A stretch of DNA of 64,000 bases from an uncultured Gammaproteobacteria bacterium (GCA_964612105.1 CAZTEU010000007.1:21008-85007), one strand, 5' to 3'. Positions 8,302 through 52,676 are shown, counted from the stretch's first letter. Made by a program: numbers and translations. The notes: generated from the sequence alone by a model not told the origin.

Positions 8302-8321
8302 AGCGAAATTCCTTGTCGGGT

Positions 8322-9147: not shown

Positions 9148-9187
<40 letters not shown>

Positions 9188-9188
9188 A

Positions 9189-9270
<82 letters not shown>

Positions 9271-10010: not shown

Positions 10011-10081
10011 TTTATCTTTTGTTGACAAAACTAGCATTAGATGCTAGTTTTTGTGTACAAACAAAACGCTGGAGGGTTGTT

Positions 10082-13044: not shown

Positions 13045-15435
13045 ATGTATCCAGAACCTCTGTCTCAATATTTACTTAAGCACCTGTCAAATCACCCAGA
13101 ACAGCGAGAGCTTATAATGATAATAAGTGATCTTGCCCGTATTGGTAAAACAATTTCACATCACACAAACAAAGCAGGTCTAGTAGGTATCTTAGGGTCT
13201 GCTGGTAATACGAATATACAAAATGAAGAAGTTCAGAAATTAGATGTCTTTGCAAATAACTTATGCAAAGATATTTTAAAAAACAGTGAACACATTGCTG
13301 CCCTTGCTTCTGAAGAAGAAGATACCGTTGTAGACATGTCTCAACACGGAAGTAATGCAAAATACATTGTTGCTTTTGATCCACTAGATGGATCCACAAA
13401 TATAGATGTAAACGTTAGTATTGGTACAATTTTTTCTGTAATGAAAAAAAGAGAAGATGTAGAACGCACAGATGAAAGGCAATTCTTACAGACTGGAAGA
13501 GAGCAGGTGCTTGCAGGATATATATTGTATGGCTCCAGCACAGTTCTAGTGTTCACGTTTGGAGATGGTGTGCATGAGTTTACATTAGATCCAGACACAA
13601 AAGATTTTTATCTCTCAAACGAAAGAATTACAATTCCAGACAAATGTCCTTACTACAGTATAAATGAGAAAAACATGAGGTATATGACAGAAAAGGACAG
13701 AAATTTTGTAGAAAGCCTTAAGACAGAAAAAGGGTGTGGCGGAAGGTATATAGGCTCTCTTGTTGCAGATATTCACAGGACACTTATAAAAGGAGGTGTG
13801 TTTCTATACTCGGCAATAGATAAAAAAGGTGAAGGGGAATACAAGGGAAAGCTCAGATTAAATTATGAGCTAAAGCCTATGGCATTTTTGATAGAACAAG
13901 CAGGGGGGTTGGCAATTGACGGAGAAAGGAATATACTCGATATTACACCGACCAAACTACATGAAAGGACGCCTATTATAGCAGGAAACAAAAATATAAT
14001 TGAAGATTATTTAATAAATAATAATATGTCTGAGGAATCATACAAGGACCTAAACTCACAGCAAGAGGTTGAATCTCTTGTAAAGGAATCATGTGCAGTT
14101 GGTTTTGATGGAATCAACTCAATTAATGATCAGCAAAAATTACAAGACGATACGATCAAAAGCCTAGCATACAATGCAAGTGTAAGTGAAAATCCAGAAG
14201 TAAAGAAAGCGTCTATATTTTGGATTAATAAGATCGCAGACTTCCTAAAAATAGAATCAGCATCAAATTCAGAGTACTACCAGAAAAAAGCGAATGGAGA
14301 CGACCAATTCTTCACTGTGCCTGCTGTTAACAGTAGAATGGTCACATTTCACACAGTACGCTCAGCTGTACGCTCAGCAGATAAACTAAATATCCCTCAT
14401 CTAATACTAGAATTAGCACTTAGTGAGGTTGGGTACACAGGTCAACAAAAAGACGAGTATTCTGCATTGTGTAAGGCAGCATATATTTCCTTGGGACTAA
14501 AGAACCGTAAAGTATATGTACAAGCGGATCACTACCAGCTTGATCCCAAAAAATATGCAATAGACAAGGATGCTGAGATGCAGAGGATAAAAGACGCTAT
14601 TACAAAAGCAATAGAAAATGGAGTGTATAACATAGATTTAGACTCATCCAAGTTCGAAACAGCAGACCCTAATAAATCAGACAGAGAAAATCAGGGGGAG
14701 AATGCAAGGCTTACAGTTGAACTACTTCATTTTATCCGTAGCTACGAGAAAAGCAAGAATATCCCATCTGTTAGTGTTGGAGGAGAGGTTGGAGAAGTTG
14801 GTGGAGAAAATACAAAATACCCCCAAGTTAATGCTTACCTAGATATGGTTTCAGAACACATGACTAATCTTGGTGCAGGACATGAGAGGGGTCTAGACAA
14901 GATAAGTATCAATGTTGGTTCTGCACATGGGGGAGTGTTAGGCCCAGACGGACAGCCATTAGATGTTGTTCCTCTAGATTTCACAGCTCATCATGATTTG
15001 TTTATGTTTGGAAAAGATCCAATGAACCCAGGTAGGCATGTTTTGGCTGTACAGCACGGAGCTTCTACTCTTCCAAAAAGATACTTCTCACTATTTCCAG
15101 CAATGCATGTTGCAGAAGTTCACTTAGCTACAGGTTTCCAGAATGTTATTTGGGAAGTTTTAGAAAAACACGATAGTGTGTTGTACGAAAAAATGAAAAC
15201 AATGACGTTTGATAAGTTTGGAGATAAGATAGCTGGACACAAAACAGAAGCTATTGGGTTTATGAAAGAAAGAAAACGTGTTACAGAGTTTGTTAAAAAA
15301 GAATTGTTAATGTCTGGAGCCGTAGAAGAAATAGAAAAGGCATTAGATAATGAATTTACAGCAATCTTCCACTCATTATATAACCTATTACAACCAAAAG
15401 CAGGTATTGTTGTAGAAGGTGACAGGTCAGATTAA
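13045..15435 (+). CDS. Fusion protein: class I fructose-1,6-bisphosphatase (N-terminal, about 330 aa) joined to a class II fructose-bisphosphate aldolase-like domain (C-terminal, about 450 aa)
   Basis: FBPase: YIVAFDPLDGSTNIDVNVSIGTIFSV, GYILYGSSTVLVF, RYIGSLVADIHRTLIKGGVFLY, GKLRLNYELKPMAFLIEQAGG. Aldolase II: FTVPAVNS...IPHLILELALSE, VQADHY, NIDLDSS, VGGEVGEVGGEN, INVGSAHGG, VQHGAST, in canonical order. Confidence 0.7.
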   Translation: MYPEPLSQYLLKHLSNHPEQRELIMIISDLARIGKTISHHTNKAGLVGILGSAGNTNIQNEEVQKLDVFANNLCKDILKNSEHIAALASEEEDTVVDMSQHGSNAKYIVAFDPLDGSTNIDVNVSIGTIFSVMKKREDVERTDERQFLQTGREQVLAGYILYGSSTVLVFTFGDGVHEFTLDPDTKDFYLSNERITIPDKCPYYSINEKNMRYMTEKDRNFVESLKTEKGCGGRYIGSLVADIHRTLIKGGVFLYSAIDKKGEGEYKGKLRLNYELKPMAFLIEQAGGLAIDGERNILDITPTKLHERTPIIAGNKNIIEDYLINNNMSEESYKDLNSQQEVESLVKESCAVGFDGINSINDQQKLQDDTIKSLAYNASVSENPEVKKASIFWINKIADFLKIESASNSEYYQKKANGDDQFFTVPAVNSRMVTFHTVRSAVRSADKLNIPHLILELALSEVGYTGQQKDEYSALCKAAYISLGLKNRKVYVQADHYQLDPKKYAIDKDAEMQRIKDAITKAIENGVYNIDLDSSKFETADPNKSDRENQGENARLTVELLHFIRSYEKSKNIPSVSVGGEVGEVGGENTKYPQVNAYLDMVSEHMTNLGAGHERGLDKISINVGSAHGGVLGPDGQPLDVVPLDFTAHHDLFMFGKDPMNPGRHVLAVQHGASTLPKRYFSLFPAMHVAEVHLATGFQNVIWEVLEKHDSVLYEKMKTMTFDKFGDKIAGHKTEAIGFMKERKRVTEFVKKELLMSGAVEEIEKALDNEFTAIFHSLYNLLQPKAGIVVEGDRSD

Positions 15436-16553: not shown

Positions 16554-17033
16554 CTACATGAAGCTCACGTGCTCGCAGGTCTTCTGCTCCAAGTCAATCA
16601 CGTAAGCCATGCAGTTGTCGAGAGGTCTTTCCGGAAAGCGCTGGACTTCCACTGGAGGCATGTGCAGAAGGTGTTCCGCGATGTACTTCGGCCAGGTCTC
16701 CGTGTACTCATAGTGAGTCACAGCCACCACCACATCGTACAAGGACCCATGCATTGCCATGAGTGTGGTTGCGCGTGGAAGATCTTCTCTTCTTGTTGCA
16801 TCGGACCACAGGACTTCGTGCGAGATGAAGTACTCAAGCAACTCTTCGGAGATGATTTCGGCAGTCTGTGTTGCACGAACTCTCGTGGAAGAGATTACAG
16901 AGCATTTCTGCCCCGCGAACCGCCTCATCAGCACCTTGCCGAGCATTTCTGCAGATTCTCTGCCCATCAGTGACAGAATGCCACCTTCTTCTGGTATGTA
17001 GTTTCCATGCCTCACAAGGACCAAGTATCTCAT
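16554..17033 (-). CDS. Histidine-phosphatase-superfamily protein (SixA/PGAM-like); G+C-rich
   Basis: LVLVRHG (RHG motif), SSTRVRATQTAEI, and a second catalytic His in VAVTHYE. Confidence 0.6.
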   Translation of the reverse strand: MRYLVLVRHGNYIPEEGGILSLMGRESAEMLGKVLMRRFAGQKCSVISSTRVRATQTAEIISEELLEYFISHEVLWSDATRREDLPRATTLMAMHGSLYDVVVAVTHYEYTETWPKYIAEHLLHMPPVEVQRFPERPLDNCMAYVIDLEQKTCEHVSFM

Positions 17034-22654: not shown

Positions 22655-23809
22655 ATGAATCTATACGAATTTGAAGGAAAAAATATTTTTAGTAAATTCG
22701 ACATCTCTATTCCAAAGGGTTTTAACGTAAAAAGAGGAGAAGATGTTATTTTGGAATATAATAGTTTAGGAGTTACAGATGTTGTAGTAAAAGCACAGGT
22801 ATTGTCTGGAAAAAGAGGGAAGAATAATGCTATATTGTTTTGTTCATCAGCAGAAGAAACCTCTCAGGCAGTAAAAGACCTTTTCAATATGGATGTGCGC
22901 GGACAGTATGTTGCATCTGTAAGAGTAGAAGAAAAATTAAACATTATAGAAGAACACTATCTCTCCATCACTTATGATACAAATGGTAAACAGCTGATAC
23001 TTGTGTACTCTGCAGAAGGTGGGGTGGATATAGAAGATGTTCCGGATGAAAAAATACAGAAAATTCATTTAGACATAAGGAGTGAAAATCCAGACAATCT
23101 CCCAAACGAGTGTAAAGAAGTGGCACAGAAGCTTTGGAAGTGTTTTTTAGATAGCGACACACGTCTTGTGGAAATAAATCCACTTGTAAAAACAGAAAAG
23201 GGAGATTGGGTTGCAGCAGACGCAAAAATTGCGATAGATGATGATGCTTTCTTTAGGCATGATGAGTGGAAAGCTTTAGAGCCAAGAACAATGATGGGTC
23301 GCCCACCAACAGAACGAGAGGTTTCGGTAAAAGAAATAGATAAAGGAGAGGGGTATTATCGTGGTACAGCTGGAAAATATATAGAGATGGATGGTGATAT
23401 AGCTGTGCTTTTCTCTGGGGGTGGTGCAAGTATTGCAAACATGGACGAGCTACAAAAAAATGGTTTGTCTGCATCTAACTATACAGAATACTCTGGAAAC
23501 CCTCCTCAGGAAAAAGTATACGAATTAGCAAAGATAGTACTATCTAAACCCGGACTAAAAGGATTATGGATTGCAGGAGGAGTTTCTAACTTTACAGACG
23601 TAGGTGCAACCTTTGCTGGAATTATACAAGCACTAGATGAGATTAAACCAAAATATCCAATTGTTATTCGTCGTGCTGGTGTAAATGAAAAAGAAGGTAT
23701 GAGATTAATGAGAGAGTGTGGCGAAAGAAATAATCTCAACATAAAATACTTTGGTAAGGAAATTTCAATGGGCGAGACAGCAGGTGAGTTAGCAAAAATG
23801 ATAAATTAA
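22655..23809 (+). CDS. sucC: Succinyl-CoA synthetase beta-subunit-like (ATP-grasp) protein
   Basis: MNLYEFEGKNIFSKF N-terminus typical of SucC. Length 384 aa. Confidence 0.8.
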   Translation: MNLYEFEGKNIFSKFDISIPKGFNVKRGEDVILEYNSLGVTDVVVKAQVLSGKRGKNNAILFCSSAEETSQAVKDLFNMDVRGQYVASVRVEEKLNIIEEHYLSITYDTNGKQLILVYSAEGGVDIEDVPDEKIQKIHLDIRSENPDNLPNECKEVAQKLWKCFLDSDTRLVEINPLVKTEKGDWVAADAKIAIDDDAFFRHDEWKALEPRTMMGRPPTEREVSVKEIDKGEGYYRGTAGKYIEMDGDIAVLFSGGGASIANMDELQKNGLSASNYTEYSGNPPQEKVYELAKIVLSKPGLKGLWIAGGVSNFTDVGATFAGIIQALDEIKPKYPIVIRRAGVNEKEGMRLMRECGERNNLNIKYFGKEISMGETAGELAKMIN

Positions 23810-23810
23810 T

Positions 23811-24707
23811 ATGGGAATACTAATAGATAACAATACAAAAGTATTAATACAGGGAATTACAGGTAAAGAAGGGCAGAAGGCTGCAAAATCTATGTTAGAT
23901 TATGGTACAAATGTTGTTGGTGGAGTACGTCCAGGAAAAGGTGGTGAAGAGGTGCTTGGTAAACCTGTGTTTAACACAGTTGCAGAAGCAATGGAAGAGT
24001 TTCCAGACATAACAACATCAGCTATCTATGTACCCCCGTTTGCTGCAAAGGGTGCAATAATGGAGGCTATAGACTCTGGTATTTCATACATTAACACAAT
24101 TATTGAGCGTATACCTATAAAAGACACTGCATATTGCTTGGCAATGGCAAAAGAAAAAGGAACAAAAATAATTGGCCCCAGCTCACTTGGTTATATTACT
24201 CCAGGTGTTGGAAGATTGGGTGTTGTTGGTGGACCGAAAACTTCTGCAGATGAAGTTTTTACTCCGGGAAGCATAGGAATAATTTCACGTTCTGGTGGAA
24301 TGACGAATGAGGTATCATGGCAGGTGCGCAAGGCCGGCATGGGTCAGAGTACAGCTGTGCATGTAGGTGGAGATCTTTTAATGGGTACAACTTATGCAGA
24401 TCTCTTAAAACTTTTTGAAAAAGATGAACAAACAAAAGCTGTAATTATTTTTGGAGAGCACGGAGGTAGTTATGAATTTGAAATTGTTGATCTAATAAAT
24501 AATAAGGAATATACAAAACCTCTTGCTGTATATGTTGGGGGAAAGTTTGCAAACATATTCCCAGAGGGAATGGATATAGGGCATGCTGGTGCTATAGTTG
24601 CTCCGGGACAGGGGGCAGAGGAAAAAGAAAAAGCTCTTGGAGAAGTTGGGGTTATGATTGCAGAACATTACGAACAACTTGCAGAACTAATTAAACCATA
24701 TTCATAA
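23811..24707 (+). CDS. sucD: Succinyl-CoA synthetase alpha-subunit-like (CoA-binding) protein
   Basis: KVLIQGITGKEGQ, and a phosphohistidine-loop region in SRSGGMTNEVS...VGGD. Confidence 0.8.
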   Translation: MGILIDNNTKVLIQGITGKEGQKAAKSMLDYGTNVVGGVRPGKGGEEVLGKPVFNTVAEAMEEFPDITTSAIYVPPFAAKGAIMEAIDSGISYINTIIERIPIKDTAYCLAMAKEKGTKIIGPSSLGYITPGVGRLGVVGGPKTSADEVFTPGSIGIISRSGGMTNEVSWQVRKAGMGQSTAVHVGGDLLMGTTYADLLKLFEKDEQTKAVIIFGEHGGSYEFEIVDLINNKEYTKPLAVYVGGKFANIFPEGMDIGHAGAIVAPGQGAEEKEKALGEVGVMIAEHYEQLAELIKPYS

Positions 24708-24718
24708 TAATTATACGT

Positions 24719-25459
24719 ATGAAATACACCACAAAGATAACAGATATAAAAGATGGCAAGGAGGCAATAAGAGGATATGATTTATCAGAGTTAGCACAGA
24801 AAAAGAGTTTTGTAGAAACTATCTTTCTTCTCCTAAAAGGAGACCTTCCAGATGAAAACGAGACAAAAATGATGAATGTACTTTTTACCTCTGCTATAGA
24901 CCATAGCCCTGGTACAGCAAGTGCTAATACTGCGCGTATTGTTGCGTCTGCAAAGAATAGTTTGCACGTAGGTGTTTCTGCAGGTATTTTGGCTATGGGT
25001 GAGAGGCACGGTAGCGCAATAGAAGGTTCTGCAAAGTTTTTTCAAGAAAACAAAGACGAAAAAGATATTGCAGATTTAGTTATGAAACTAAAGGAACAGA
25101 AAGTGCGTGTACCAGGATATGGACACCCAACCTTGTCAAAAGATCACAGGAGTGATACAATTTTTTCCGTTGCAAAAGACACAGGTATATATGGAAAACA
25201 CTGTACATTTGCAGAAAGCTTTCACAAAGAGCTTAACAACGCCTCTTCTAAAGAATTACCTATTAATATAGATGGGGCAATGGCAGCAGTACTATCAGAT
25301 ATGGGGTTTGATTGGGGTATCATGAAAGGATTTTTCATAATAGCACGTGTTCCAGGATTAGTAGCACAGACGTATGAGGAGTTGACAAATGATAAAGGAA
25401 TACGTAGAGTTGCACAAGAAGAAATAGAATACACAGGAGAAACAGACAGAAAATTATAA
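24719..25459 (+). CDS. Citrate-synthase-family small protein (citryl-CoA-lyase-like C-terminal domain only)
   Basis: AIDHSPGTASANTARIVAS, GERHGSA, VPGYGHPTLSKDHR (the GFGHRVYK..DPR signature) and INIDGA...FFIIARVPGLVAQTYEE align with the catalytic half of citrate synthase. Confidence 0.6.
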   Translation: MKYTTKITDIKDGKEAIRGYDLSELAQKKSFVETIFLLLKGDLPDENETKMMNVLFTSAIDHSPGTASANTARIVASAKNSLHVGVSAGILAMGERHGSAIEGSAKFFQENKDEKDIADLVMKLKEQKVRVPGYGHPTLSKDHRSDTIFSVAKDTGIYGKHCTFAESFHKELNNASSKELPINIDGAMAAVLSDMGFDWGIMKGFFIIARVPGLVAQTYEELTNDKGIRRVAQEEIEYTGETDRKL

Positions 25460-26208: not shown

Positions 26209-26442
26209 TTATCTTTTTTTACGACGAGTTGTTTTACGACGCGTAGTCTTTCTCTTTGTTGTCTTACGTTTTGCTGGTTTGCGTTTCTTTGTAGCTTTAC
26301 GCTTCGCAGGTTTACGCTTTTTAGCAGTTTTACGTTTTTTTGGAGCAGCTTTTTTCTTACGTTTTGCTGGTTTGCGTTTCTTTGTAGCTTTACGCTTCGC
26401 AGGTTTACGCTTTTTAGCAGTTTTACGTTTTTTTGCAGGCAT
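26209..26442 (-). CDS. Highly basic Lys/Arg/Ala/Pro-repeat protein (histone H1/Hc1-like, 78 aa) containing a 93-bp tandem duplication
   Basis: MPAKKRKTAKKRKPAKRKATKKRKPAKRK repeated twice (DNA repeat unit at about 26268 and 26361). GAGGAG upstream of the ATG. The longer listed ORF is a 5' extension. Confidence 0.5.
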   Translation of the reverse strand: MPAKKRKTAKKRKPAKRKATKKRKPAKRKKKAAPKKRKTAKKRKPAKRKATKKRKPAKRKTTKRKTTRRKTTRRKKR

Positions 26443-26660
26443 ATTTTTATTTCTCCTCTCTATGGATTGAATACGTGTAACTTTGATATGACCATGGTAC
26501 ATGCCAAATGGCATTACACATACAACACGTTAACACGACAAGCATCGATGTGAACATGCTTCGACCTTTTACAATATTATAATCTTTTTTTTTGCTTTTT
26601 TATATACTTAACATTCAAAAACTGTGCATAACTTTTACAAAAATATTTTTTTAAAAAAAT

Positions 26661-28058: not shown

Positions 28059-28180
28059 ATACTGGCAATTATATCAAAACTTGGATAAAGTAACAATGCT
28101 GATATAGCATAAATATGCTATCTTTAACTTGACAGAAGTGGAAAATTTTGCTAAGTTAAGCGACTACGTTCTTTACAAAA

Positions 28181-28255
28181 GAGGAGGGAAAAATATGGTT
28201 TTTTAGAGTGGGTTGATAGTGTCTTCTTTAATTTGAGGATAGCATCAACCCACTC
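28181..28255 (+). promoter_or_regulatory. Leader element: strong SD plus a 3-codon mini-ORF (ATG GTT TTT TAG) plus a 12-bp perfect stem-loop, upstream of the Cys-repeat gene
   Basis: GAGGAGGG (28181-28188), ATG 28195, TAG 28204-28206, then GAGTGGGTTGAT (28206-28217) pairing with ATCAACCCACTC (28244-28255) around a 26-nt loop. TTGACA at 28129-28134 upstream. Confidence 0.35.
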
Positions 28256-28308
28256 TGTTACGGGAAACAGGGTACAGATGCGCTTTAGCGCGAGGAGACA
28301 GTGACATC

Positions 28309-30972
28309 ATGAGGAACGTCACATTTGAGAGGAAGGCTGCTGCGCTCTTCGCGTTGGTAGTTGTTTTCAACATGGGGGGGTGTATCGACACCTTCTCCGA
28401 AGCAGAACAGGACCACTTGGTTTGTCTGCAGAGCACAAAAGGGTGTGATGCAGAATCCGAGGACGGCAGTATCGACGGAAGTTCTGTCGATGCCGATGAT
28501 GCATACGAGGATTCTAATGACACGCACCTGGACGCAACACCTGACAGCTCTGTGCTGGATGGTGGAGAAGATGGGTTCGTGGATGTGGAAGACTCGCAGG
28601 ATGATGCTGGAAGTGATTCCGGTGACACGCACCAAGATGCCGATGATGTGACCGATGACGCAGTGGACTCCCCAGATACGTTCACCACCGTGGTGGACAA
28701 CTGCAAGGGAGTAAACTGTGACGATGGGAACGTCTGCACAAACGACTCATGCAATTCTGTGGACGGATCATGCACCAACACGCACAACTCCGCCGACTGC
28801 GACGATGAAAATGTCTGCACATTGAATGACTTCTGCGAGGGGGGCTTTTGCATCTCCGGAATAGACAAAAAGTGTCCGGACGAAGGCAATCCCTGCACTG
28901 ACGAATCCTGCGACCAGAAGAAGGGCTGTGTTTCACTGCCCAACTCTGCGACTTGCACGGATGGGAATGCCTGCACTACCGCCGACACCTGCACGAACGG
29001 AAAATGCACCCCTCAGGGGGCGAAAGACTGCAATGATGGTGACAAGTGCACAAGTGACTCGTGCGACATCTTCAGTGGTTGTGAGCATGTCAGCAAGTCT
29101 GGAGAGTGCGACTGTGAGTTCGATGTCGACTGCATCGACAAGAATCCGTGTACTACGGACTCGTGCAAGGACAAAAAGTGCCAGTATGGATTCGCGGACA
29201 ACGAAGACTGCACAGATGACGGGCCGTGCACTGAGCCGAAGGGCAAGTGCAAGTCTGGCAAGTGTGTTGTTAAACTGAAGTCCTGCGACGACGACAACCC
29301 CTGCACTAACGACTCCTGCGACCAGAAGAAGGGCTGTGTTTCATTGCCCAACTCTGTGACTTGCACGGATGGGAACGCCTGCACGAAGGGTGACATCTGC
29401 AAGGATGGATCCTGTCAGAAAGGTTCTCCAGTTGCTTGCGACGACGATAACCCCTGCACCAGCGACAGCTGTGACACCAGCACCGGTAAGTGCTTGTTCA
29501 AGAAGGAGAAAGAGTGCTTAGGGCACAACAAGTGCACAAAACACAGCGATTGCCTTGCGAAAGGCAGTAAGTTCGTTGGTTGCTGGGATGTAAGCACTAT
29601 CCAGAACTCGCAGAGCCTTGGCTATTGCCAGAAGAAATACGGTGATGTGGGGAGCAAGTGCCTCTTCGAACTCATCGGTGAGAAGAAGCCCTGTAGTGAC
29701 GGCTTAGCCTGCACTCTTGATCTATGTAATACAGGCAAGGGGTGTGTCGTTGAACTCTTGCAGCACGATAAGTGCGATGACGGCAATGTCTGCACCAACG
29801 ACTCCTGCGACCAGAAGAAGGGCTGTGTTTCACTGCCCAACTCTGCGCCCTGCGATGACGGTGACAAGTGTACGGAGAATGACAAGTGCGCAGACAAGAA
29901 GTGTGTTGCGGGTACCCCAGTTACTGGCTGCATTGCATGCAAGGAAGATAAGGACTGCGAGGACGATGATATCTGCACTGCTGACTTCTGTTTCGGGGAC
30001 AGCGGATGCAAATACAAGCCCTCTCCACCCCTGACATCTTGTGACGACAGCAACCTTTGTACGGTTGGTGACACCTGTAAGGACAGCAAATGTACGAGTG
30101 GTAAGAAGAAGGTCTGCAATGACTCCAACCCCTGCACCAACGACTCCTGCAACAAGGACAAGGGGTGTGTCTATCTACCCAATTCTGCTACTTGCACAGA
30201 TGGAAGTGTCTGCACTCTGTCTGACCAATGCAAGGACAGCAAATGCTCTCCAGGTACCACGAAAGACTGCAACGACTCCAACCCCTGCACCAATGATTCA
30301 TGTGACAAAGTAAAAGGCTGTCTGCACAGCTCCAACACTGCGTCCTGCGATGACGGTGACAAGTGCACGGAGAACGACAAGTGTGCAGACAAGAAGTGTG
30401 TTGCGGGTAAAGCGACGCAGTGCGACGACAAAGATCCATGCACAGCTGATTCTTGTGACAGCAAGACAGGTAAGTGCAAGTTCCAGATGACTTGCAAGAT
30501 GATGAAGGCTTCAATCGAGCTCAAGACCACCAACGCCTGGTGGGAAGAGTTTGGTAAGGCCGGCGTCATGGCGCGGATTTCCGGTACTTGTAGCATTACG
30601 CTTTCTAGTGGCAAAAAACAGTCGCTTTGGAGTCTTGGTGTAGATTTCGCGCAAGCGAAGGCACCTCTACGCTGTCAGAATGGGGTTGTGTGTGGTGGAC
30701 AGGTTTCGCCTACTATCGTATTGGAAGCAGATGTTCTCGAGAAGTCGCATTCCCTGAAGTGTGACAAGGTCCAGGGATATCAGTACACAACCCTCAGTCC
30801 TTCTAGCTTCTTCAGCTCCATGAGCGGTCAGGCTGTTATGAAGGCTGGCACCTTCGGGACCAAGTTCACTGCCAAGGTCGGTAACTGCGAGGAGAAAGTC
30901 AAGTCATACACCAAGGTGTCAGACGGAAACGGCAATCTAGCCATCGCTTTCACTGCGTGTAAAAAACCATAA
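28309..30972 (+). CDS. Secreted/lipoprotein-like giant Cys-rich repeat protein: acidic N-terminal region, then about 30 or more tandem Dictyostelium-type (Dicty_CTDC-like) CxxC...C repeats, then a distinct C-terminal domain of about 150 aa; G+C-rich
   Basis: Signal peptide MRNVTFERKAAALFALVVVFNMGGC. Repeats such as CDDGNVCTNDSCNSVDGSCTNTHNSADCDDENVCTLNDFC and CTDGNACTTADTCTNGKC with a period of about 24 aa. GAGGAGA upstream of the ATG. Confidence 0.6.
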   Translation: MRNVTFERKAAALFALVVVFNMGGCIDTFSEAEQDHLVCLQSTKGCDAESEDGSIDGSSVDADDAYEDSNDTHLDATPDSSVLDGGEDGFVDVEDSQDDAGSDSGDTHQDADDVTDDAVDSPDTFTTVVDNCKGVNCDDGNVCTNDSCNSVDGSCTNTHNSADCDDENVCTLNDFCEGGFCISGIDKKCPDEGNPCTDESCDQKKGCVSLPNSATCTDGNACTTADTCTNGKCTPQGAKDCNDGDKCTSDSCDIFSGCEHVSKSGECDCEFDVDCIDKNPCTTDSCKDKKCQYGFADNEDCTDDGPCTEPKGKCKSGKCVVKLKSCDDDNPCTNDSCDQKKGCVSLPNSVTCTDGNACTKGDICKDGSCQKGSPVACDDDNPCTSDSCDTSTGKCLFKKEKECLGHNKCTKHSDCLAKGSKFVGCWDVSTIQNSQSLGYCQKKYGDVGSKCLFELIGEKKPCSDGLACTLDLCNTGKGCVVELLQHDKCDDGNVCTNDSCDQKKGCVSLPNSAPCDDGDKCTENDKCADKKCVAGTPVTGCIACKEDKDCEDDDICTADFCFGDSGCKYKPSPPLTSCDDSNLCTVGDTCKDSKCTSGKKKVCNDSNPCTNDSCNKDKGCVYLPNSATCTDGSVCTLSDQCKDSKCSPGTTKDCNDSNPCTNDSCDKVKGCLHSSNTASCDDGDKCTENDKCADKKCVAGKATQCDDKDPCTADSCDSKTGKCKFQMTCKMMKASIELKTTNAWWEEFGKAGVMARISGTCSITLSSGKKQSLWSLGVDFAQAKAPLRCQNGVVCGGQVSPTIVLEADVLEKSHSLKCDKVQGYQYTTLSPSSFFSSMSGQAVMKAGTFGTKFTAKVGNCEEKVKSYTKVSDGNGNLAIAFTACKKP

Positions 30973-31082
30973 ATCTCCGATCTACGGATCGGCAAGGAGA
31001 ACGCGCCAACAGCCTGCGGATTTACATCCAAAGGCTCGAGGCGCGCTCACAGTGTTTCTTTTCTCAAGGAGATAGTGTGGGG

Positions 31083-31104
31083 ATGGTGAGTATATACTCA
31101 CCAT
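31083..31104. terminator. 22-bp perfect palindrome ATGGTGAGTATATACTCACCAT (probable terminator of the island gene; overlaps the tRNA promoter -35)
   Basis: Perfect dyad with a TATATA centre. Same architecture as the eno terminator at 52650-52675. Confidence 0.4.
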
Positions 31105-31132
31105 TGAAATATTTAAGACTTTTTGTTATAGT
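31104..31132 (+). promoter_or_regulatory. Promoter of tRNA-Ile
   Basis: TTGAAA (31104-31109), 17-nt spacer, TATAGT (31127-31132), about 20 nt upstream of the tRNA. Confidence 0.5.
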
Positions 31133-31151: not shown

Positions 31152-31227
31152 GGGCCTGTAGCTCAGTGGTTAGAGCACAACGCTTATAACGTTGGGGTCG
31201 GCGGTTCAATTCCACCCAGGCCTACCA
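31152..31227 (+). tRNA. tRNA-Ile with anticodon UAU (AUA-decoding); CCA encoded
   Basis: GGGCCTG-TA-GCTC-AGTGGTTA-GAGC-A-CAACG-CTTATAA-CGTTG-GGGTC-GGCGG-TTCAATT-CCACC-CAGGCCT-A-CCA. Anticodon loop positions 34-36 are TAT, with A37. The body closely resembles the E. coli tRNA-Ile1 scaffold. Confidence 0.8.
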
Positions 31228-31229
31228 TT

Positions 31230-32201
31230 ATGTCTGAACAAACATACAAAGTAGAAGAAAACAGTGCAGGTTCCCGCCTGGATGTTTTTTTGGCTGACAA
31301 AACTAGTTTTAGTAGGGCGAAAACTCAGAAGCTAATTAAAACTGAAAAGGTTTTAATTAATGGTAAAAGCATAAAAAAGGCAAGTCATGCTGTTCATGAG
31401 AATGATACAGTCTCTTTTGATTTGCAAAATGATGATATTGTGCAAGAAGAGGAGAAAGAAGCAACACTACACCCTTCTACAAAGCCACTGAAGATGATAA
31501 AAGAAGAGGAGGATTATCTGATAGTAGAAAAACCAGCTGGACTGCTTGTACACCCAACACAGGCAAACGAAGAAGATACTCTTGCAGGTAGAATAATTAA
31601 TGCATATCCGGAAATAAAAGGAGTGGGAGAGGGCTCTGTACGTCCAGGTATTGTGCACAGGATAGACAGAGATGCTTCTGGACTTCTTGTTATTGCAAAA
31701 AACCAAGAGATGTTTGATCATATAAAAGCTCAGTTTAAGACTAGGACAGTTAAAAAAGAATATGATGTGCTTGTGTACGGACACATGGAGAGACCAGAAG
31801 GTACAATTGATTTTGATATAGACCGTGGAAAAGATGGGCGAATGGTTTCTCGTCCCAAAATAGAATTAAATCTAAAAAATGTAGGAAAGGTGCAAGATGG
31901 GAAGCAGGCAATTACAGATTATAAGGTAGAAAAAGAGTTTGCACGATATTCCATGATAAAAGCAAAAATACACACTGGGCGCATGCATCAGATACGTGTA
32001 CACATGTTTGCTTTTAATCACCCTGTTGTAGGTGACACACTATACGAAAACAAGAAGCTCATAAAAAAAGGAGATAAAAAACTAAAAAGACTATTCCTTC
32101 ACGCATCAAAGCTATGTTTTGAGGATTTAAGTGGAAAAGAAGTCTGTTTTGAGTCCAAACTACCAAATAATCTAGAAAGTTATTTAGAAAATATTAAATA
32201 A
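31230..32201 (+). CDS. rluD: RluA/RluD-family 23S rRNA pseudouridine synthase with N-terminal S4 domain
   Basis: HRIDRDASGLLVIAK catalytic-Asp motif. S4-like N-terminus begins MSEQTYKV. The listed ORF from 31077 is an artefactual extension across the tRNA. Confidence 0.85.
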   Translation: MSEQTYKVEENSAGSRLDVFLADKTSFSRAKTQKLIKTEKVLINGKSIKKASHAVHENDTVSFDLQNDDIVQEEEKEATLHPSTKPLKMIKEEEDYLIVEKPAGLLVHPTQANEEDTLAGRIINAYPEIKGVGEGSVRPGIVHRIDRDASGLLVIAKNQEMFDHIKAQFKTRTVKKEYDVLVYGHMERPEGTIDFDIDRGKDGRMVSRPKIELNLKNVGKVQDGKQAITDYKVEKEFARYSMIKAKIHTGRMHQIRVHMFAFNHPVVGDTLYENKKLIKKGDKKLKRLFLHASKLCFEDLSGKEVCFESKLPNNLESYLENIK

Positions 32202-33305: not shown

Positions 33306-36161
33306 TTACTTCATCTCCTCTTTAAGATACTTTCCTGTCCAACTTTCTTTTATCTTAATCACGTCTTTTGGTGTACCTTCCGCCACAACTTCTCCACCTT
33401 TTTTACCACCTTCTGGTCCAAGATCAATAATCCAATCAGCAGACTTTATTACATCTATGCTGTGCTCTATAATTAGTACTGTATTTCCTTTGTCTACTAG
33501 CTTGTTTAATACAAGTAAGAGTCTTTTAATATCCTCAAAATGAAGACCTGCTGTAGGTTCGTCTAAGATATAAAGAGTTTTACCTGTTGCTTTTCTAGAT
33601 AATTCTGTTGCTAGTTTTACACGCTGTGCTTCACCACCAGAAAGGGTAGTTGCTGGTTGTCCAAGTTGTACATAACCTAATCCAACATCTCTTAATACTT
33701 GTAACTTGTCTGCAATATTTTTCTTGTCTGCAAAAAACCTATACGCCTCTTCTACTGTCATGTTTAGTACATCTGAAACATTTTTCCCTCTATAATGAAT
33801 TTCTAATGTATCACGGTTATATCTTGTTCCTTCACATTCATTACATTCTACAAAAACATCTGTAAGGAATTGCATTGGAATACGGACATATCCCTCACCA
33901 GTACAGGCCTCACATCTACCACCACCTTTTACATTAAAACTAAATGTACCAGCATCGTAATTTCTTAGTTGTGCTTCTGATTGATTTGCATACAGTTCAC
34001 GTATTGCAGTAAATACACCTGTGTATGTTGCAGGATTACTGCGAGGAGTACGTCCAATTGGCATTTGATCTATTGAGATAACTTTATTTACAGAGCTTAA
34101 TCCCTTAATCTTGCTATGTTCTCCAGCCTCTGTTTTTGCTCTGTGGAAGTGTTTAGACAGTGCACGCCCAAGAATCTTATGTATTAGGGTTGTTTTTCCA
34201 GAACCAGACACTCCTGTAACACAGACAAGTTTTGCAAGAGGTATAGAGACATCAATATTTCTTAGGTTAAATGCCTTGGCCCCCTCGACAGTGATTGTTT
34301 TTCCAGAACCCTTGCGATATTTTTTTGGCATTGAAATATTTTCTTTTCTGCTGAGGTATCTTCCTGTAAGAGATTTTGAACTCTTCTTGATCTGCTGTAA
34401 AGATCCTTTTGCCATTATTTCTCCACCATAATTACCAGCACCAGGACCTACATCTATAACATAATCAGCAGATTCTATTATTGCTTTATCATGTTCTACA
34501 ACAATAACGGTATTACCAATATCCCTTAGGTGTCTCAATGTATCTATTAGTTTTTCTGTATCCTTAGAATGTAGCCCCATGGAAGGCTCATCTAATATAT
34601 AGATAATACCTGTAAGACCAGCAGATAACTGTGTAGAAAGTCTAATTCTCTGAGCCTCACCACCAGAAAGAGTAGATAATGAACGATCTAGAGAAACATA
34701 TCCAAGTCCTACACGGATAAGATGGTCTAGTCTAGCTGTAATTTCGTTTACTACCGGCTTAGAAATATCTTTTTTATCTCCAAGTAATCCTTGTATAAAT
34801 GGGTTTTCGTGGCTCTTTAAATTTTTACTCAATGCTTGTCTGGAAAGTGCGAATAACTCTTGAGCTTCCTCTATGTTCATTTCAGAAACATCAGAAATAG
34901 AGAAGTCTCCTATTTTTACATGCAAAGATTCTGGTTTTAGTCTTTTTCCATCACATACAGGACAGACACGCTCTCGCATGTATTGTTCTATCTCTTTTCT
35001 TATATATTCTGAGTTTGTTTCTGCGTGGCGTTGTGTAAGATTTGGAATTATACCTTCAAAATGTACTTTCTTATTATCTATAAGATACTCCTGCCCGTCT
35101 GTTCCATAGTACAGAAGATCCATTACATTTTGAGGTAGTTTTTGTACAGATACATTTACACTAAAGCCGTGTGCCGAAGAAACAGCACTAAGTAGCTTCT
35201 GATAATACTGCTGATTACCAACTATTCTAGTCCAAGGTTGCACAGCTCCTTCTGCGAGGGTTAGTCTTGGGTTTGGAATAACAAGCTCTGGATCTACGTC
35301 TAATATTCTTCCTAGACCACCACAGCGTCCACAAGCCCCGTATGGGCTGTTAAAACTAAAGGAACGAGGTTCTATTGGGTCAAATGTCTTTCCTGTTTCT
35401 AAACACACAGGTACTATAGCAAAAGTATATTCTTCATCCTCGTTTGCATCCCACAACAATACGAAACCATTTGAAAGATCTACAGCCTTTTCAATCATTC
35501 CATGCATTAGTTTTGTGGTCTTTTTTGTTATGTACCCAATTAGTACATCTATATCGTATGTTCTTGTGGCTTCGAACTTAAACTTACTCAACTGACCGAT
35601 AGTCATTTCCACTCCGTTAACACGAAACTTATCATAACCACTTTGCTCTAGTTTTTTTAACAGTAGCTTTGGTTTGATTTTCTGTTGCTTAATTACTGGA
35701 GATAATATGTATAGACCGCTCCCATTCTTAATTAACTTTCTTACTGATTCTGTAATTTCTCCAACACTGTGACTCATAACCTTTGTATTTGTTTCCGGAC
35801 AATACTGTATACCAACTCTTGCAAAAAGAAGGCGCAAATAATCTGCTATTTCTGTTGCTGTACCAACTGTAGAACGAGGGTTCTGTGTGTAATTTTTTTG
35901 GTCAATAGCAATTGTAGGGGACAGTCCTTGTATTTCATCAACATCCGGCTTATCTTGCATGTCCATAAACTGACGTGCATATGCATTAAGACTTTCTGCA
36001 TAGCGTCTTTGTCCTTCAGCATATATTGTGTCGAAAGCAAGTGAAGACTTACCGGACCCTGAGAGTCCGGTGATAACTACTAATTTATTTTTTGGAATAT
36101 CAACTGATACATCCTTTAAGTTGTGCACGCGTGCGTGCTTTATAGAAATATTATTTGGCAT
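33306..36161 (-). CDS. uvrA: Excinuclease ABC subunit A
   Basis: Two ABC ATPase modules ([20 protein letters not shown]), zinc-finger Cys pairs, 951 aa. Confidence 0.95.
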
Positions 36162-37565: not shown

Positions 37566-38354
37566 TTAGTTTAATTGATCAACGAGTAATGTGCGCCACT
37601 GATCTGACGTTACCACACCCTCAATTTTTGTATTGTTTATAATGTATGTTGGGGTTCCTTTTACTCCAAAAATTAGCCCATCTTGTAAATCTTGATGAGT
37701 GTATCCAAGGTTTTTTTGACTCTTTACACATTCGTTAAATTTGACCATATTTAATCCTATTTTCTGAGCTGATTTTGTAAGAGCGTCATCCTTTAGCTTA
37801 TTTGTTTCGAATAAGTCATCACGATATTCCCAAAACTTTTTTTGTTCGAAAGCACATGATGACGCAATACCAGCTGGAATTGCTCGTTCATGTATGCTGG
37901 ATAGTGGAAAGTGTTTGAACACAACTCTTACGGCTGGACCAAACTCTTCCACAGCTTTTTTAAATATCGGGTATGATTTTTGACAGAAAGGACATTCAAA
38001 ATCTTCAAAGACAAGTATTGTAATTGGAGCAGAACTCTTTCCTTTTGTTGGGTTATAAGGATGTATTGCTTTCTTGACATCACTTATTGAGAACTCTTTA
38101 TCTAAGGTCTGAAGTGATGAGTCTGAGGAAAATTCTCCCGCAAATCTCTGTGCAATTTCATCAGCAGTTCCAGTTTTTATCCTGATAAAGTAATAGCCAG
38201 TGGTAATAATGAATCCAAGGATAAGCAGTAGAACTGTTCCTCCAATCACTAAAACAGAAATCCCAAGAGGGGTTTTAATAAAGGGTTTCTTGGGCTCTGG
38301 ATTTTGAACTGTGAATCCTGTATCCATATATTTTATGACAAGCTTTTTGAACAT
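37566..38354 (-). CDS. Membrane-anchored DsbA-family thiol:disulfide oxidoreductase
   Basis: N-terminal TM, then a thioredoxin fold with the CPFC active site. Confidence 0.7.
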   Translation of the reverse strand: MFKKLVIKYMDTGFTVQNPEPKKPFIKTPLGISVLVIGGTVLLLILGFIITTGYYFIRIKTGTADEIAQRFAGEFSSDSSLQTLDKEFSISDVKKAIHPYNPTKGKSSAPITILVFEDFECPFCQKSYPIFKKAVEEFGPAVRVVFKHFPLSSIHERAIPAGIASSCAFEQKKFWEYRDDLFETNKLKDDALTKSAQKIGLNMVKFNECVKSQKNLGYTHQDLQDGLIFGVKGTPTYIINNTKIEGVVTSDQWRTLLVDQLN

Positions 38355-38497: not shown

Positions 38498-39301
38498 TCA
38501 GCTACGGTTTTTGCCGAAAGTGACGTAAACGAGTGTCCCTTCGCTACTGCTGATTACCCTTCGCCCGGCATGCTTAATCTCGGGCGATGTTTTGACGCGA
38601 CGCTGGCGCTTGGTTTTGGAAGACTTTTTCTCCGGGAAGTGACCTTTGAGGTCCTTCGGTCTTTTCGCGGGGAGTGTGCGATCCCACAGTCGTCTCGCAA
38701 CATCTCGGAGACTTTCTGGGGTTGTGTCTTCCTTTTTCAGGCGGATATGCCGAGCTTCTTCTTCAGCGTCAAGCAGTGTGCGCATGAGCCATTCAGCATC
38801 CAGCCCAAGCTCTCTTGGGTTGTATCTGATAACTCTAGACAGCGCAAATGCACAGATTCTTCCCAAATGGCTGACAGCCAAATGGCGAGTGACTCTGGTG
38901 GAGTCTTCTCTGTTGTGCACATGCATGAGCAGTCTTACGCATCTGGAAAGGCTGTCTTTCCGGAGCCTATGGTCAAGCGCATCGCTTCCTCGGAAGAGGC
39001 ATCGGTATGCGTACCAGTTAAGCTCCGCAAGGAACATGATGAGAGGAACAGGGAGGTCGCCAGGGGGCGTCCTCAGGATCTTTGACTCGATATTACCAAT
39101 CAGGCCACAGGCCAGCATGGTAACTCCGGTCTTGATCTGGTTGTGTTCCGGTATCGGACCAATCAAGATTCTCAACTTGTTGATCATCGATTCCGGATCG
39201 TTTCTCCTTCCCCGTATGCGCCTTATTGCGCATGCATTTGGGGTGGTGTGCACATCTTCCAGGTAGGCAACCACGCCCACCCGAGAGTGTTCGTGGTTCA
39301 T
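38498..39301 (-). CDS. Hypothetical protein (267 aa), G+C-rich, basic C-terminal tail; possible Rx4-6H (HEPN-like) motif, unverified
   Basis: GGAGG lies 5 nt before ATG 39301. TTGACA-N17-TTAAAT on the minus strand (+strand TGTCAA 39350-39355). The overlapping plus-strand ORFs are judged spurious (G+C-rich sequence). Confidence 0.45.
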   Translation of the reverse strand: MNHEHSRVGVVAYLEDVHTTPNACAIRRIRGRRNDPESMINKLRILIGPIPEHNQIKTGVTMLACGLIGNIESKILRTPPGDLPVPLIMFLAELNWYAYRCLFRGSDALDHRLRKDSLSRCVRLLMHVHNREDSTRVTRHLAVSHLGRICAFALSRVIRYNPRELGLDAEWLMRTLLDAEEEARHIRLKKEDTTPESLRDVARRLWDRTLPAKRPKDLKGHFPEKKSSKTKRQRRVKTSPEIKHAGRRVISSSEGTLVYVTFGKNRS

Positions 39302-43549: not shown

Positions 43550-46500
43550 ATGAAGCGAATCATAAACTATAGTAAATGGTTGGCCTTTTTTTCCATCCTA
43601 CTTTTTATTAGCGTATGGTATTTTAGTGTTGGATTTGGAGAATTTTTTGCAGGGGAAAGTCAGGCAGCTGCGAACAATTGGGTTGGTGGTGCAACAGGAG
43701 ATTGGAACGATGCAGATAATTGGAGTGGGGGTATTCCAGACACATCCGACCAGGTTGCTGTGACTGCAACTTCAACCAGCATATTGATAACAGTGCAGTC
43801 GGGTCAGACTGCCAGTTTTGATACTTTCACAATGACAGGGGTATCTGCAAGTGATTATTTTGTTACCACAACTCTTATTGGAAATATAGGCACAGGTGCT
43901 TCTATAACAGTTGGAGATGCGGCATACCTAAACCAAGAAAACACAGCTACTCAGACACTGACAGGCACCCTCACAGTGAACAGTGGTGGTACTGTTACAC
44001 ACACAGACAATACAACATCACAGGCATATGAGGTGGATATGGCTGCTGCCACAATTACAATTAATTCTGGTGGTTTTGTTACTGCTAGCTCGACTGGTTT
44101 TACTGGTGGTGCATCTGGTTTTGATGGTAATGGTACTGGACCTGGTCTGTTAGACAGTAATGGTGGGCAGTCTTCTGGTTCTGGTGGTGGACACGGAGGT
44201 CGTGGTGGAGACGGTGATCACCAAATTCCAATAACAGACGCAAATGATCTTCTTGGTGGTTCTGCTTATTGTACAGCAGCAAATCCAAGCACTATGGGTT
44301 CTGGTGGTGGAGGTGGTACGAATGCCAATGAGTCTGGTGGAGATGGAGGAGGGTATATAAAACTAGACGCATCTGGGTCTCTTACAATTGCAGGTAGTGT
44401 AACTGCAGATGGTGGATATGGTGCATCCGGAGCAAGTGACCGTGATGCTGGTGGGGGAGCTGGTGGAGGTATTTACTTGGAAGGAACAACTGTTACAATT
44501 GATAGTTCCACAATTAGGGCAGATGGTGGGCATGGTGGTGGAGGAGTTACTGGAGGTGGTGGAGCCGGTGGTGGTGGTTGTATTTTTATTTCTTACAGCA
44601 CCATTTCTGACACTGGTGCGGTAACAAGTACAGATGCTGGAATAGGGCAAACTGTAGCAGGAACACCAGCAGGGGCGGGAACATGGACTCTTTCATCACA
44701 AAATACTGCTTCTACGCTAATTGCTCCTTATGCTCCTATACAGATAAAAGATGGAAGTGGGTATGTGACTGTTACAACAACAATCACAGATACAAATGGT
44801 GATACAGTTACTCTTTATGTTGATTTTACAGATGATGGAGGTGCGACATGGAGTTCCTCCACAATAGCAACAATTACCCAAGATGATGGTTCCGCAACAA
44901 CCTCTACAGGTCAGATTGGAACAATTACTAGTACATCAGATGGAAATGCGCTTAGTTTTACAATAGATTTAGAAACAGCTTGGGTTACAAGTACACAAGC
45001 ATCTGTAAGACTTATTGCAAATGATGGAACAGTAGATAGTACAAACGTAACTTCTACAGGTTTTATTGTCGATACTATTGAACCTAGCAAGCCTGCCAAC
45101 CTTTTCCTAAACACAACTTCTACGTTATCCGTAATATTTAATTTTGGGGCAACATCGACAGATGATAACTTCAAAGAATACAAGATTTTCTATAAGGCAG
45201 GCTCTTCTGGTGTTACAGAATCAGATTCTGCACACACAAGTAGTACAGACTCTAACTTTGGTGATGATACTTTTAATGCTGTTACAACATCGTCTCTTTC
45301 TGGTCTTACTGCTAATACACAGTATGTAGCAAATTTGTATGCTTATGATGAGTATGGTTTTAGTACAACCTCTGCAAGTGAGTTCGCTTTCTATACGATG
45401 GCGAATACACCAACAGCAACAAGTACTGGTGCATACCATGAAATGACAGTTAATTGGTCTGGAGATGGAACAAATTATTATATTACTCTTGGAGATGCGA
45501 CTTCTGGAGTTACCACTGCTAGGACATATCAGTTTACAGGTTTGGAGTGTAATACAAGCTATACAGCCAATGTTGTTGCAAGAAACGGAGACACAGTTTC
45601 TACAACAGCTGCGACAACTAATGTTACAACTCAGAGTTGTGCAGGTGGGGGAGGGGGACAGTCTGCAGCAAAGAAAACGTTGTTAGACCCAGATGCAGAC
45701 AGTGTGGACAGTGCAGATGATAACTGTCCAGATGTGTCTAACACAAACCAGAATGATGCAGACAACGATGGTGTGGGTGATGCTTGTGAAGTAGATACAG
45801 ACGGTGATGGAATTATAGACGATAACGATAATTGTAAGAACACAAAGAATCCAGATCAGAAAGATGAAAATAATAATGATATTGGGGATGCTTGCGAAAT
45901 GGATACAGACAGTGATGGAGTATTTGATTATGAGGACAACTGTAAGGAGGTAAAAAATACAGATCAGAAAGATGCAGATAAGGATAAGATAGGAGACTTA
46001 TGTGAGATGGACACAGATGGTGACGGAATAATCGACGATAACGATAATTGTAAAAACAAAAGTAATGCAGACCAGAAAGACACAGATAATGACGGTCTTG
46101 GGGATGCATGTGATGAGGTAGTAATAGAAGACAAAGAGGATATAATTCCCGAGGAAAAACCAGAAGAAAAGCCGGAGGAAAAACCAGAAGAGAAACCCAA
46201 GGTTGAGGAGAAAAAAGAAGAAAAAAAACCTGTAAAAGAAAAGGTAATAAATAAAACAGAACCAAAAACTGAAAAAGTAGAAGAAGATGCAAGTATTCTC
46301 ATTAAGAAAGAAGGCTCTCCTGTTTCTATTACAAATAGTCCGCTTGTAGATATTGCACTGGATACAAAATATTCACGCGTAACACTCCAGGACAATTTTG
46401 GAAATGTTGTGGAGAATATTCCGGTAACTGCAGAGATGCCTTGGGAGTTTGACAGTGAAGAAGGTAAGAAGTGTATTACAGCAACCTTCTTTGATAACAG

Positions 46501-52649: not shown

Positions 52650-52676
52650 AAAATCCTCGTATATACGAGGATTTTG
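52650..52676 (+). terminator. Rho-independent terminator after eno (26-nt perfect palindrome)
   Basis: AAAATCCTCGTATA/TATACGAGGATTTT. Confidence 0.7.

Follow-up and report, generated by a model that had tools for sequence, protein, structure and literature searches.

A lipoprotein gene with persistently G+C-rich codons in front of tRNA-Ile in Candidatus Magasanikbacteria: a probable old stalk-and-head cassette

We analysed a 64,000-nucleotide stretch of DNA deposited as an uncultured Gammaproteobacteria bacterium (GCA_964612105.1, CAZTEU010000007.1:21008-85007; hereafter the window), in which a gene for an 887-amino-acid cysteine-repeat lipoprotein of the Dicty_CTDC family lies directly in front of a tRNA-Ile gene. 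The gene is much richer in G+C than its surroundings, and the persistence of this excess across diverged lineages is the most interesting result of the analysis. Our overall reading, to which we give a probability of roughly 0.6, is that the locus would be an old, vertically inherited cassette for a surface stalk-and-head lipoprotein whose G+C-rich codons are maintained. The original prediction had taken the richness in G+C, and a repeat family typical of high-G+C bacteria, to fit a horizontal origin. An ancient acquisition is indeed supported, but a recent transfer is not, since orthologues are found in the same slot at three related loci (L008, L011 and L013). The composition itself fails as a sign of recent transfer: these sister loci show the same or a stronger G+C excess, which is the finding that the prediction had named as counting against it.

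Results

The lipoprotein gene occupies the same slot in diverged relatives

The neighbouring DNA of related loci was retrieved via relatives of the RluD protein encoded beside the tRNA gene. The window, L008, L011 and L013 share the order HD-like gene, Dicty_CTDC gene, tRNA-Ile(UAU), RluD. In L008, a complete 1.23-Mb genome (OZ246405.1), the slot holds a 724-amino-acid protein with a lipobox, an acidic linker, a Dicty_CTDC array and a different C-terminal domain, or head. L011 encodes on its + strand a 977-amino-acid protein of the same build as the window's, and the end of the partial L013 contig holds the last repeats and an L011-type head; L008 and L011 are the two relatives with the gene start on the contig. 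The flanking proteins of these relatives are 58-73% identical to those of the window (0.55-0.70 for three concatenated genes). The L011 protein aligns colinearly with that of the window along some 860 amino acids, a span that takes in an N-terminal C[IL]D[TF]F motif; in a comparison with the 119 best database hits, each is the other's best or second-best match.

The original prediction of an insertion before tRNA-Ile agrees with the empty sites that we found in L016, L026 and L024, where the HD-like gene stands beside tRNA-Ile with only about 113 bp between them. A metagenome scan with the HD-like neighbour returned three loci, all of them empty sites. Further loci were rearranged and lacked the Dicty_CTDC gene, no remnants of it were found in the outgroup loci, and an RluD scan of GTDB representative genomes gave no close relative (best match 41% identical, in Berkelbacteria). 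A three-gene neighbour-joining tree paired the window with L008 and L011 with L013, and placed the gene-less L018 beside the second pair. Since L018 groups with L011 and L013, a single gain requires one loss; L018 also lacks the HD and DUF389 neighbours. One gain and one loss would be the simplest history, although the tree is weak. We found no integrase or transposase open reading frame (ORF) between 27345 and 32201, no direct repeats flanking the cassette, and no viral relative in IMG/VR.

The public gene call at L011 5492-7642 (- strand) is a 716-amino-acid antisense ORF with a first-position G+C of 0.92, lying opposite the real gene on the + strand. We rejected this ORF, and a 254-amino-acid antisense ORF in the window, as shadows of G/C-ending sense codons; neither is conserved. 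Such miscalls may hide members of the Dicty_CTDC family in databases.

G+C-rich codon usage persists at saturated synonymous sites

The gene has a G+C content of 0.524 and a G+C content at third codon positions (GC3) of 0.628, against GC3 values of 0.24-0.32 in neighbouring genes, and in a fine profile the G+C-rich stretch spans about 28240-31080. Host and gene GC3 were 0.257 and 0.628 in the window (logit offset 1.59), 0.220 and 0.617 in L008 (1.74), 0.416 and 0.895 in L011 (2.48), and 0.163 and 0.504 in L013 (1.65). Fourfold-degenerate sites agreed with this comparison across lineages. The shift to G- or C-ending codons was found in every amino acid, with pyrimidine and purine third bases alike, and GC3 was high in each segment of the gene (N-terminal part 0.57, repeats 0.65, head 0.60).

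At positions with identical amino acids, the fraction of identical codons equalled the saturation expectation calculated from each gene's codon usage, for the Dicty_CTDC gene and its flanks, and also in the closer pair L011/L013. A fading relic of transfer would have converged to the host composition. As the high GC3 has been kept despite saturated synonymous sites, the G+C richness is maintained and is no relic of a recent transfer. That gene GC3 follows host GC3 at a near-constant offset is the pattern expected of a constant bias, either selection or biased conversion, laid over the host mutation bias. Two controls, in which no such excess was seen, back this interpretation: in the typical high-G+C carrier L027 the gene had a GC3 of 0.85 with a host at 0.81-0.89, and a long secreted repeat protein of the window itself (43550-48283; TSP_3/fn3/Big_13) had a host-like GC3 of 0.25.

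Five more ORFs of the window have a GC3 of 0.53-0.64 (host about 0.26), at 212-706, 10019-10708, 10894-11580, 16554-17033 and 38498-39301; they comprise two unknowns, PgpA, a TylF-like methyltransferase and a His_Phos protein. The last interval shows a marginal similarity to L013 9153-9797 (24% identity, E 4e-4), from which we draw no claim. Two additional G+C-rich ORFs, not in the window, lie between L19 and uvrA in L008.

Predicted layout of the protein: lipid anchor, disulfide-rich stalk and head

The single long ORF of this stretch encodes, on the + strand, a protein that begins MRNVTFERKAAALFALVVVFNMGGC. The scan against PF00526 (Dicty_CTDC) that had been proposed for it confirmed a cysteine-repeat protein, with a score of 164.1 bits against a cut-off of 27 (E 5.3e-49) and 12 stretches matched; the orthologues scored 178 and 108 bits, and an NCBIfam scan of the 887-amino-acid protein gave no match. 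The predicted sequence of signal peptide with a lipobox-like end, acidic linker, Dicty_CTDC array and distinct C-terminal domain also holds. Our criterion for a lipoprotein was a charged n-region, an h-region and [LVI][ASTVI][GAS]C within the first ~15-35 residues. The N-terminus, MRNVTFERKAAALFALVVVFNMGG/C, runs from a charged n-region (R2, R8, K9) through a hydrophobic core (AAALFALVVVF) to N-M-G-G-C25, of which positions -1 to -3 fit a lipobox, and canonical lipoboxes stand at the equivalent place in the orthologues (LLLAG/C in L008, CAAVG/C in L011). The linker (residues 47-131, about 85 amino acids) contains 26 Asp, 5 Glu and no Lys or Arg, a net charge of about -31. Both the linker and the N-terminal Cys motif are present again in L008 and L011.

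The array holds 92 Cys at spacings of 5/4-5/3-6/7-9, and 18 of its modules fit the strict pattern. Its tandem units of about 24 amino acids with four regularly spaced Cys (CxDxxxCTxDxC...) are of the kind that characterises PF00526 repeats, and the Cys columns are invariant across a 40-sequence alignment. The repeats are diverged in DNA except for a few copies 86-94% identical, the closest of which include 29837-29914 and 30332-30409 (up to 94%); Tandem Repeats Finder detected no DNA-level tandem array. With the same 40 sequences, AlphaFold2 modelled residues 578-726 entirely as short beta-hairpins, at a predicted local distance difference test score (pLDDT) of 96.8. A PDB sequence search with the whole protein matched no solved structure, and Foldseek of the repeat model against PDB gave nothing significant. 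The best Foldseek matches (E about 0.1 or worse, TM-score, the template modelling score, at most 0.24) were to Cys-rich stalks of surface lectins and adhesion proteins from eukaryotes: first the heavy chain of the Entamoeba Gal/GalNAc lectin, in its Cys-rich region, and also the ADAM disintegrin/Cys-rich region and follistatin modules. These share with the array an elongated, disulfide-rich, extracellular character, but the scores show no structural equivalence. The Dicty_CTDC family is listed among repeat families without a known structure in a published survey (PMC8078820).

Among the candidates scored, the family had 4237 matches at E <= 1e-5, and all named matches came from Myxococcales, 'Deltaproteobacteria', Binatia and similar metagenome-assembled genomes (MAGs), as expected from the prediction that such repeats occur mostly in high-G+C lineages. 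Because the family is overwhelmingly one of high-G+C Myxococcota, 'Deltaproteobacteria' and Binatia, a foreign origin is plausible, and an old insertion from a high-G+C, Myxococcota-like lineage is the likely origin on this distribution. The best non-self match in 5.8 billion clusters was 40-44% identical. These bacterial proteins resemble the window's in having the same repeats in alternating four-Cys modules, a mostly lipobox-like N-terminus (76 of 119 top family matches) and a variable C-terminal domain (fibrinogen_C, Lectin_C, NHL, Laminin_G_3 and others). They differ in that their genes match high-G+C hosts, whereas the window gene mismatches its 37% G+C genome, and the window head was not found in them. 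The gene is thus an addition from the Candidate Phyla Radiation (CPR) to a known, functionally uncharacterised family of bacterial Cys-repeat lipoproteins, and we found no literature report on Dicty_CTDC proteins in CPR bacteria. In slime moulds, Dicty_CTDC proteins have extracellular-matrix and prespore roles. The Dictyostelium proteins that define PF00526 are likewise secreted and built from repeats of about 24 residues with four conserved Cys, but they are eukaryotic and lack a lipid anchor.

The head differs between lineages, whereas anchor, stalk, promoter and leader are retained. A Pfam scan of the window head gave no match, and a word-indexed homologue search with it returned nothing, not even itself. 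An exhaustive search of 1.84 billion representative proteins found only two relatives: a stand-alone 132-amino-acid protein (E 1e-6) encoded beside Wzy and glycosyltransferase genes, and a protein whose four cohesin domains each matched (phmmer, E 3.5e-4 over the whole library). The window head was absent from the orthologues and from the top 120 family hits. L011 and L013 share one head type, and the head types do not match one another. A MAM-like appearance of the L011/L013 heads was set aside, as no Pfam match backs it.

Regulatory DNA is conserved on both sides of the gene

The gene's own TTGACA promoter, part of the original prediction, is supported by L008 and L011, in which the TTGACA-N17-TGC-TA..xT layout is kept; a consensus scanner missed it because the -10 element fits in only 3 of 6 bases. 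The mini-ORF in the leader (Table 1) has a counterpart at the same place in L011 (ATG GAA TTT TAG; M-E-F-stop) and no in-frame equivalent in the L008 leader, and so appears only partly conserved. The leader RNA folds with -52 kcal/mol (z = -4.2), and its stem is retained in the centroid. L008 and L011 have hairpins at the same leader site; their inner stems differ and the base, (A/G)GT(G/A)G...C(C/T)ACTCT, is conserved. This conservation was read by eye because an automatic alignment of the three leaders misplaced L008. The comparison suggests that the hairpin, rather than the mini-ORF, is the conserved leader element.

Downstream, the 3' hairpin array folds with -64.8 kcal/mol (z = -7.8) and includes a terminator-like site (31038-31058) followed by a T-tract. 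G+C-rich terminator hairpins, then CACAGTGTTTCTTTT or a near-identical motif, are found in the window, L011 and L013. The third hairpin (31046-31082) has the arms CACAGTGT(T/C)TCTTTT and AAGGAGATAGTGTG, both of which are kept in the distant L011 (about 7964-8003); this non-coding hairpin is therefore under constraint. The predicted 22-bp perfect palindrome overlapping the tRNA-Ile -35 element was confirmed, its last base (31104) being the first -35 base of the tRNA-Ile promoter (TTGAAA-17-TATAGT, 31104-31132). It is unique in the window and had no match in shuffled sequences. However, it is absent from all three relatives (L008, L011 and L013), and a conserved role in tRNA-Ile control is therefore disfavoured; the palindrome is best read as a putative strain-specific terminator or insulator hairpin, not a conserved tRNA-Ile regulator. 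A second perfect palindrome, of 26 bp (AAAATCCTCGTAT/ATACGAGGATTTT), lies at 52650-52675 in a gap between two + strand ORFs. Two perfect palindromes of at least 22 bp in 64 kb is far above chance expectation.

The tRNA-Ile of all Magasanikbacteria loci examined has UAU, a rare anticodon, and its 3' end lies 2-3 nt ahead of the RluD start codon. Because the two adjoin, gene callers extend RluD through the tRNA (366-376 amino acids instead of about 323). ATA makes up 45% of Ile codons in host genes and 1 of 16 in the Dicty_CTDC gene. L013 has at 1038-1076, some 35 nt before the intact tRNA, a 39-nt near-perfect copy of the tRNA-Ile 5' half that extends as far as the anticodon loop, and L008 a shorter fragment at about 7895-7920. 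Both sit between cassette and tRNA and do not bracket the cassette. These half-copies suggest past recombination or integration at the tRNA.

Table 1. Features of the lipoprotein locus, with positions in the window unless a related locus is named
Feature	Position	Strand	Basis
Lipoprotein-gene promoter: TTGACA (28129-28134), 17-nt spacer, extended -10 TGC-TAAGTT (28152-28157)	28129..28157	+	read from sequence
Shine-Dalgarno-like AGAGGAGGG and 3-codon mini-ORF ATG GTT TTT TAG (28195-28206)	28180..28206	+	read from sequence
5' leader hairpin, beginning inside the mini-ORF stop codon	28205..28256	+	RNA fold
Lipoprotein gene: ORF with ATG start, 887 amino acids	28309..30972	+	translation
Signal peptide with lipobox-like end (residues 1-25, ...VVFNMGG/C25)	28309..28383	+	translation
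Short Cys motif (CIDTF...VC...GC) and acidic linker, probably disordered	28384..28701	+	composition count
Dicty_CTDC array (residues 132-729): ~22-23 four-Cys modules of two alternating types, two irregular inserts	28702..30495	+	Pfam, Cys spacing
C-terminal head (residues 730-887; 158 amino acids, non-repetitive, 6 Cys) and stop codon	30496..30972	+	no Pfam match
3' untranslated array of four stable hairpins: 30977-30992, 31002-31045, 31046-31081, 31083-31104 (22-bp palindrome)	30977..31104	+	RNA fold
tRNA-Ile, anticodon TAT	31152-31227	+	
tRNA-Ile compared between loci	window 31152-31230; L008 7952-8025; L011 8085-8158; L013 1111-1184; L016 6924-7001		

Source organism and junctions

The suggestion that this might be a CPR organism was borne out. 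The 23S rRNA gene (5481-9542) exceeds the model length by about 1.1 kb and has within it an ORF for a LAGLIDADG homing endonuclease (7736-8260); the insertion is probably an intron, and 23S rRNA introns are common in CPR bacteria. For the adjacent RluD protein, the nearest relatives with a name come from Candidatus Magasanikbacteria. Because of this insertion and these relatives, we assign the source, from its sequence, to a Candidatus Magasanikbacteria (CPR) bacterium with a 37% G+C genome.

The protein was found on at least 12 contigs with no more than two amino-acid differences. Four contigs from different samples and assemblers (JGI and ENA) are 99.95-100% identical to the window over both junctions; samples holding this population are JGI 3300008627 and 3300009375 and ENA SUTE22-1 and SCRA20-1. 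The presence of the same junctions in at least four independent assemblies excludes an assembly chimera. Strain polymorphisms are not enriched in the gene, which holds one of the six single-nucleotide differences from L001. Four of the six window-L001 differences over 16 kb fall within 60 nt of uvrA (34330-34389), a cluster that looks like a short recombination tract.

Other genes of the window

Three adjacent genes at 22655-25459 encode the domains ATP-grasp_2/Citrate_bind, CoA_binding/Ligase_CoA and Citrate_synt, an ATP-citrate-lyase-like or citryl-CoA set that is also present in L020 and is unusual in a reduced CPR genome. A single 796-amino-acid ORF (13045-15435) joins the N- and C-terminal domains of fructose-1,6-bisphosphatase to a class II fructose-bisphosphate aldolase domain. 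Another large protein that is putatively on the surface is encoded at 43550-48283; its 1577 amino acids include thrombospondin type 3 repeats as well as fn3 and Big_13 domains. At 26209-26514 (- strand), a 101-amino-acid ORF, called as a gene in related contigs, consists almost wholly of KKRK(T/P)AKRKA-type basic repeats and may encode a histone-like or nucleic-acid-binding protein.

Discussion

The protein is most likely a membrane-tethered binding protein with a stalk and a head, as judged from its predicted layout. A signal peptide ending in a lipobox Cys would provide the tether, followed by the acidic, flexible spacer of about 85 amino acids and by a stalk of about 600 amino acids in which ~22-23 Dicty_CTDC-type beta-hairpin modules would be stapled by disulfides. 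The stalk would project the Cys-containing head of about 158 amino acids off the cell, where it would bind a partner on another cell or surface; we infer this binding role because of the architecture, the lineage-variable head and the lack of an immunity-type ORF. A DsbA-like oxidoreductase encoded 6.6 kb away (37566-38354), at the same position in L008 and L013, could form the stalk disulfides. As to history, an ancestor shared by several Magasanikbacteria lineages would have gained the whole cassette of promoter, structured leader, gene and terminator hairpins in a single insertion between HD-like gene and tRNA-Ile promoter, probably from a high-G+C, Myxococcota-like source. The cassette would then have been passed on vertically, with its G+C-rich codon usage actively maintained by selection on mRNA or translation or by biased gene conversion.

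Several observations weigh against this reading. The carriers form no clean clade, the split between carriers and the rest having a bootstrap of 1/200. The L008 array is as close to Myxococcota proteins as to the window's, so that L008 orthology rests on position, the N-terminal motif and regulatory DNA. The GC3 of 0.895 in L011 equals a donor-type composition, which makes a later replacement in that lineage conceivable. The window lipobox, read by eye from the translation, is non-canonical at -4, where Asn does not satisfy the PROSITE-type rule, and the window head has no recognisable fold (single-sequence AlphaFold pLDDT 35), with only weak hints of a cohesin. Surface exposure, binding by the head and the cause of the G+C excess are what we infer.

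The tRNA-Ile slot could instead be a hot spot that has been overwritten repeatedly by high-G+C alleles, possibly from the hosts of these episymbionts, with lineages now at different stages of drift. The range of GC3 from 0.50 to the donor-like value in L011 would fit this, as would the lineage-specific heads, the L008 array being as close to Myxococcota proteins as to the window's, the extra G+C-rich ORFs near the L008 locus and the recombination suggested by the tRNA-Ile 5'-half copies upstream of the tRNA gene in L013 and L008. We nevertheless consider such recurrent replacement unlikely. No close donor appeared among the 5.8 billion clusters, the window and L011 proteins are colinear down to the N-terminal motif, and the L011/L013 pair, despite a common head type, shows synonymous saturation. 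In addition, the offset follows host GC3 closely in three lineages, the regulatory DNA is conserved on both sides, and the tRNA half-copies do not bracket the cassette.

A different function has been considered for the head, namely that of a cohesin-like beta-sandwich that binds a dockerin-type module of some other secreted protein. The cohesin-bearing anchoring scaffoldins are comparable in being anchored at the surface and in having a spacer and a docking module of the beta-sandwich type, and there are weak sequence hints of a relationship: the four-cohesin protein among the distant relatives of the window head and, independently, a cohesin (10uq_A) as the best PDB match of the L011/L013 head profile (E 0.008). 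However, no head matched Pfam Cohesin (PF00963) at E up to 1-10, and profile-profile comparison with cohesin by hhalign gave a probability of 9.8% with the window head and of 0.2% with that of L011/L013. With head types that do not match one another and no dockerin partner identified, a docking platform is quite improbable.

A recent island, in which G+C-rich DNA entered before tRNA-Ile and has not yet drifted to host composition, would account for the atypical composition (GC3 0.63 against 0.26), the tRNA-adjacent site, a family typical of high-G+C bacteria and the other G+C-rich ORFs of the window. It is very unlikely, being already contradicted by syntenic orthologues. The site is filled in L008, L011 and L013, with flanks 55-70% identical and synonymous sites saturated, and the gene is missing only from loci that are more distant or rearranged; conservation extends to the AT-rich promoter and leader; and the signatures of mobility, whether an integrase or transposase ORF, flanking direct repeats, a bracketing tRNA copy or a viral relative, were not found.

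A conserved stalk with C-terminal domains that vary by lineage is also the layout of a polymorphic toxin, with the stalk delivering a variable toxin domain. There is very little likelihood of this here, as downstream of the stop codon come terminator hairpins and the tRNA-Ile promoter but no immunity-type ORF, and the heads bear Cys and match no toxin family in Pfam. That sharp compositional boundaries betray a chimera of CPR and high-G+C DNA is already refuted for practical purposes by the junctions shared among independent JGI and ENA assemblies and by the same arrangement in diverged relatives, including the complete 1.23-Mb genome.

Under the preferred reading of an old, vertically inherited cassette, the G+C excess itself still calls for a cause. 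Possible causes are selection for a structured mRNA, slow decoding by codons rare in the host, biased gene conversion and, on occasion, replacement from a high-G+C donor; the strong hairpins at both transcript ends would fit selection for a stable, structured mRNA. We propose, tentatively and with more doubt than confidence, that a gene-specific force holds the synonymous sites far from the genome's mutational equilibrium, by +1.6 to +2.5 logit in four mutually saturated lineages. Two readings of this force remain open. One is selection that favours a long-lived, strongly structured mRNA rich in G+C, or decoding through host-rare codons slow enough that ~46 consecutive disulfides form in order. 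The other is repeated capture of surface-protein alleles from the high-G+C bacteria that host these episymbionts, in which case the composition of the gene and its head domain would indicate the host partner.

The prevailing view of CPR bacteria is that they live attached to other cells, and to our knowledge few of their attachment proteins are known. The conserved locus, the stalk-and-head layout and the heads that vary by lineage make this lipoprotein a candidate host-contact protein in Magasanikbacteria. Its strong anomaly of G+C and codon usage beside a tRNA mimics a textbook recent island, while the gene appears to be old and stably inherited; composition-based calls of horizontal gene transfer in CPR genomes can therefore misdate such genes. 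A constant GC3 offset over saturating divergence is unusual, and if selection on mRNA or decoding is its cause, the locus would offer a clear example from nature of codon usage designed for one gene within a reduced genome.

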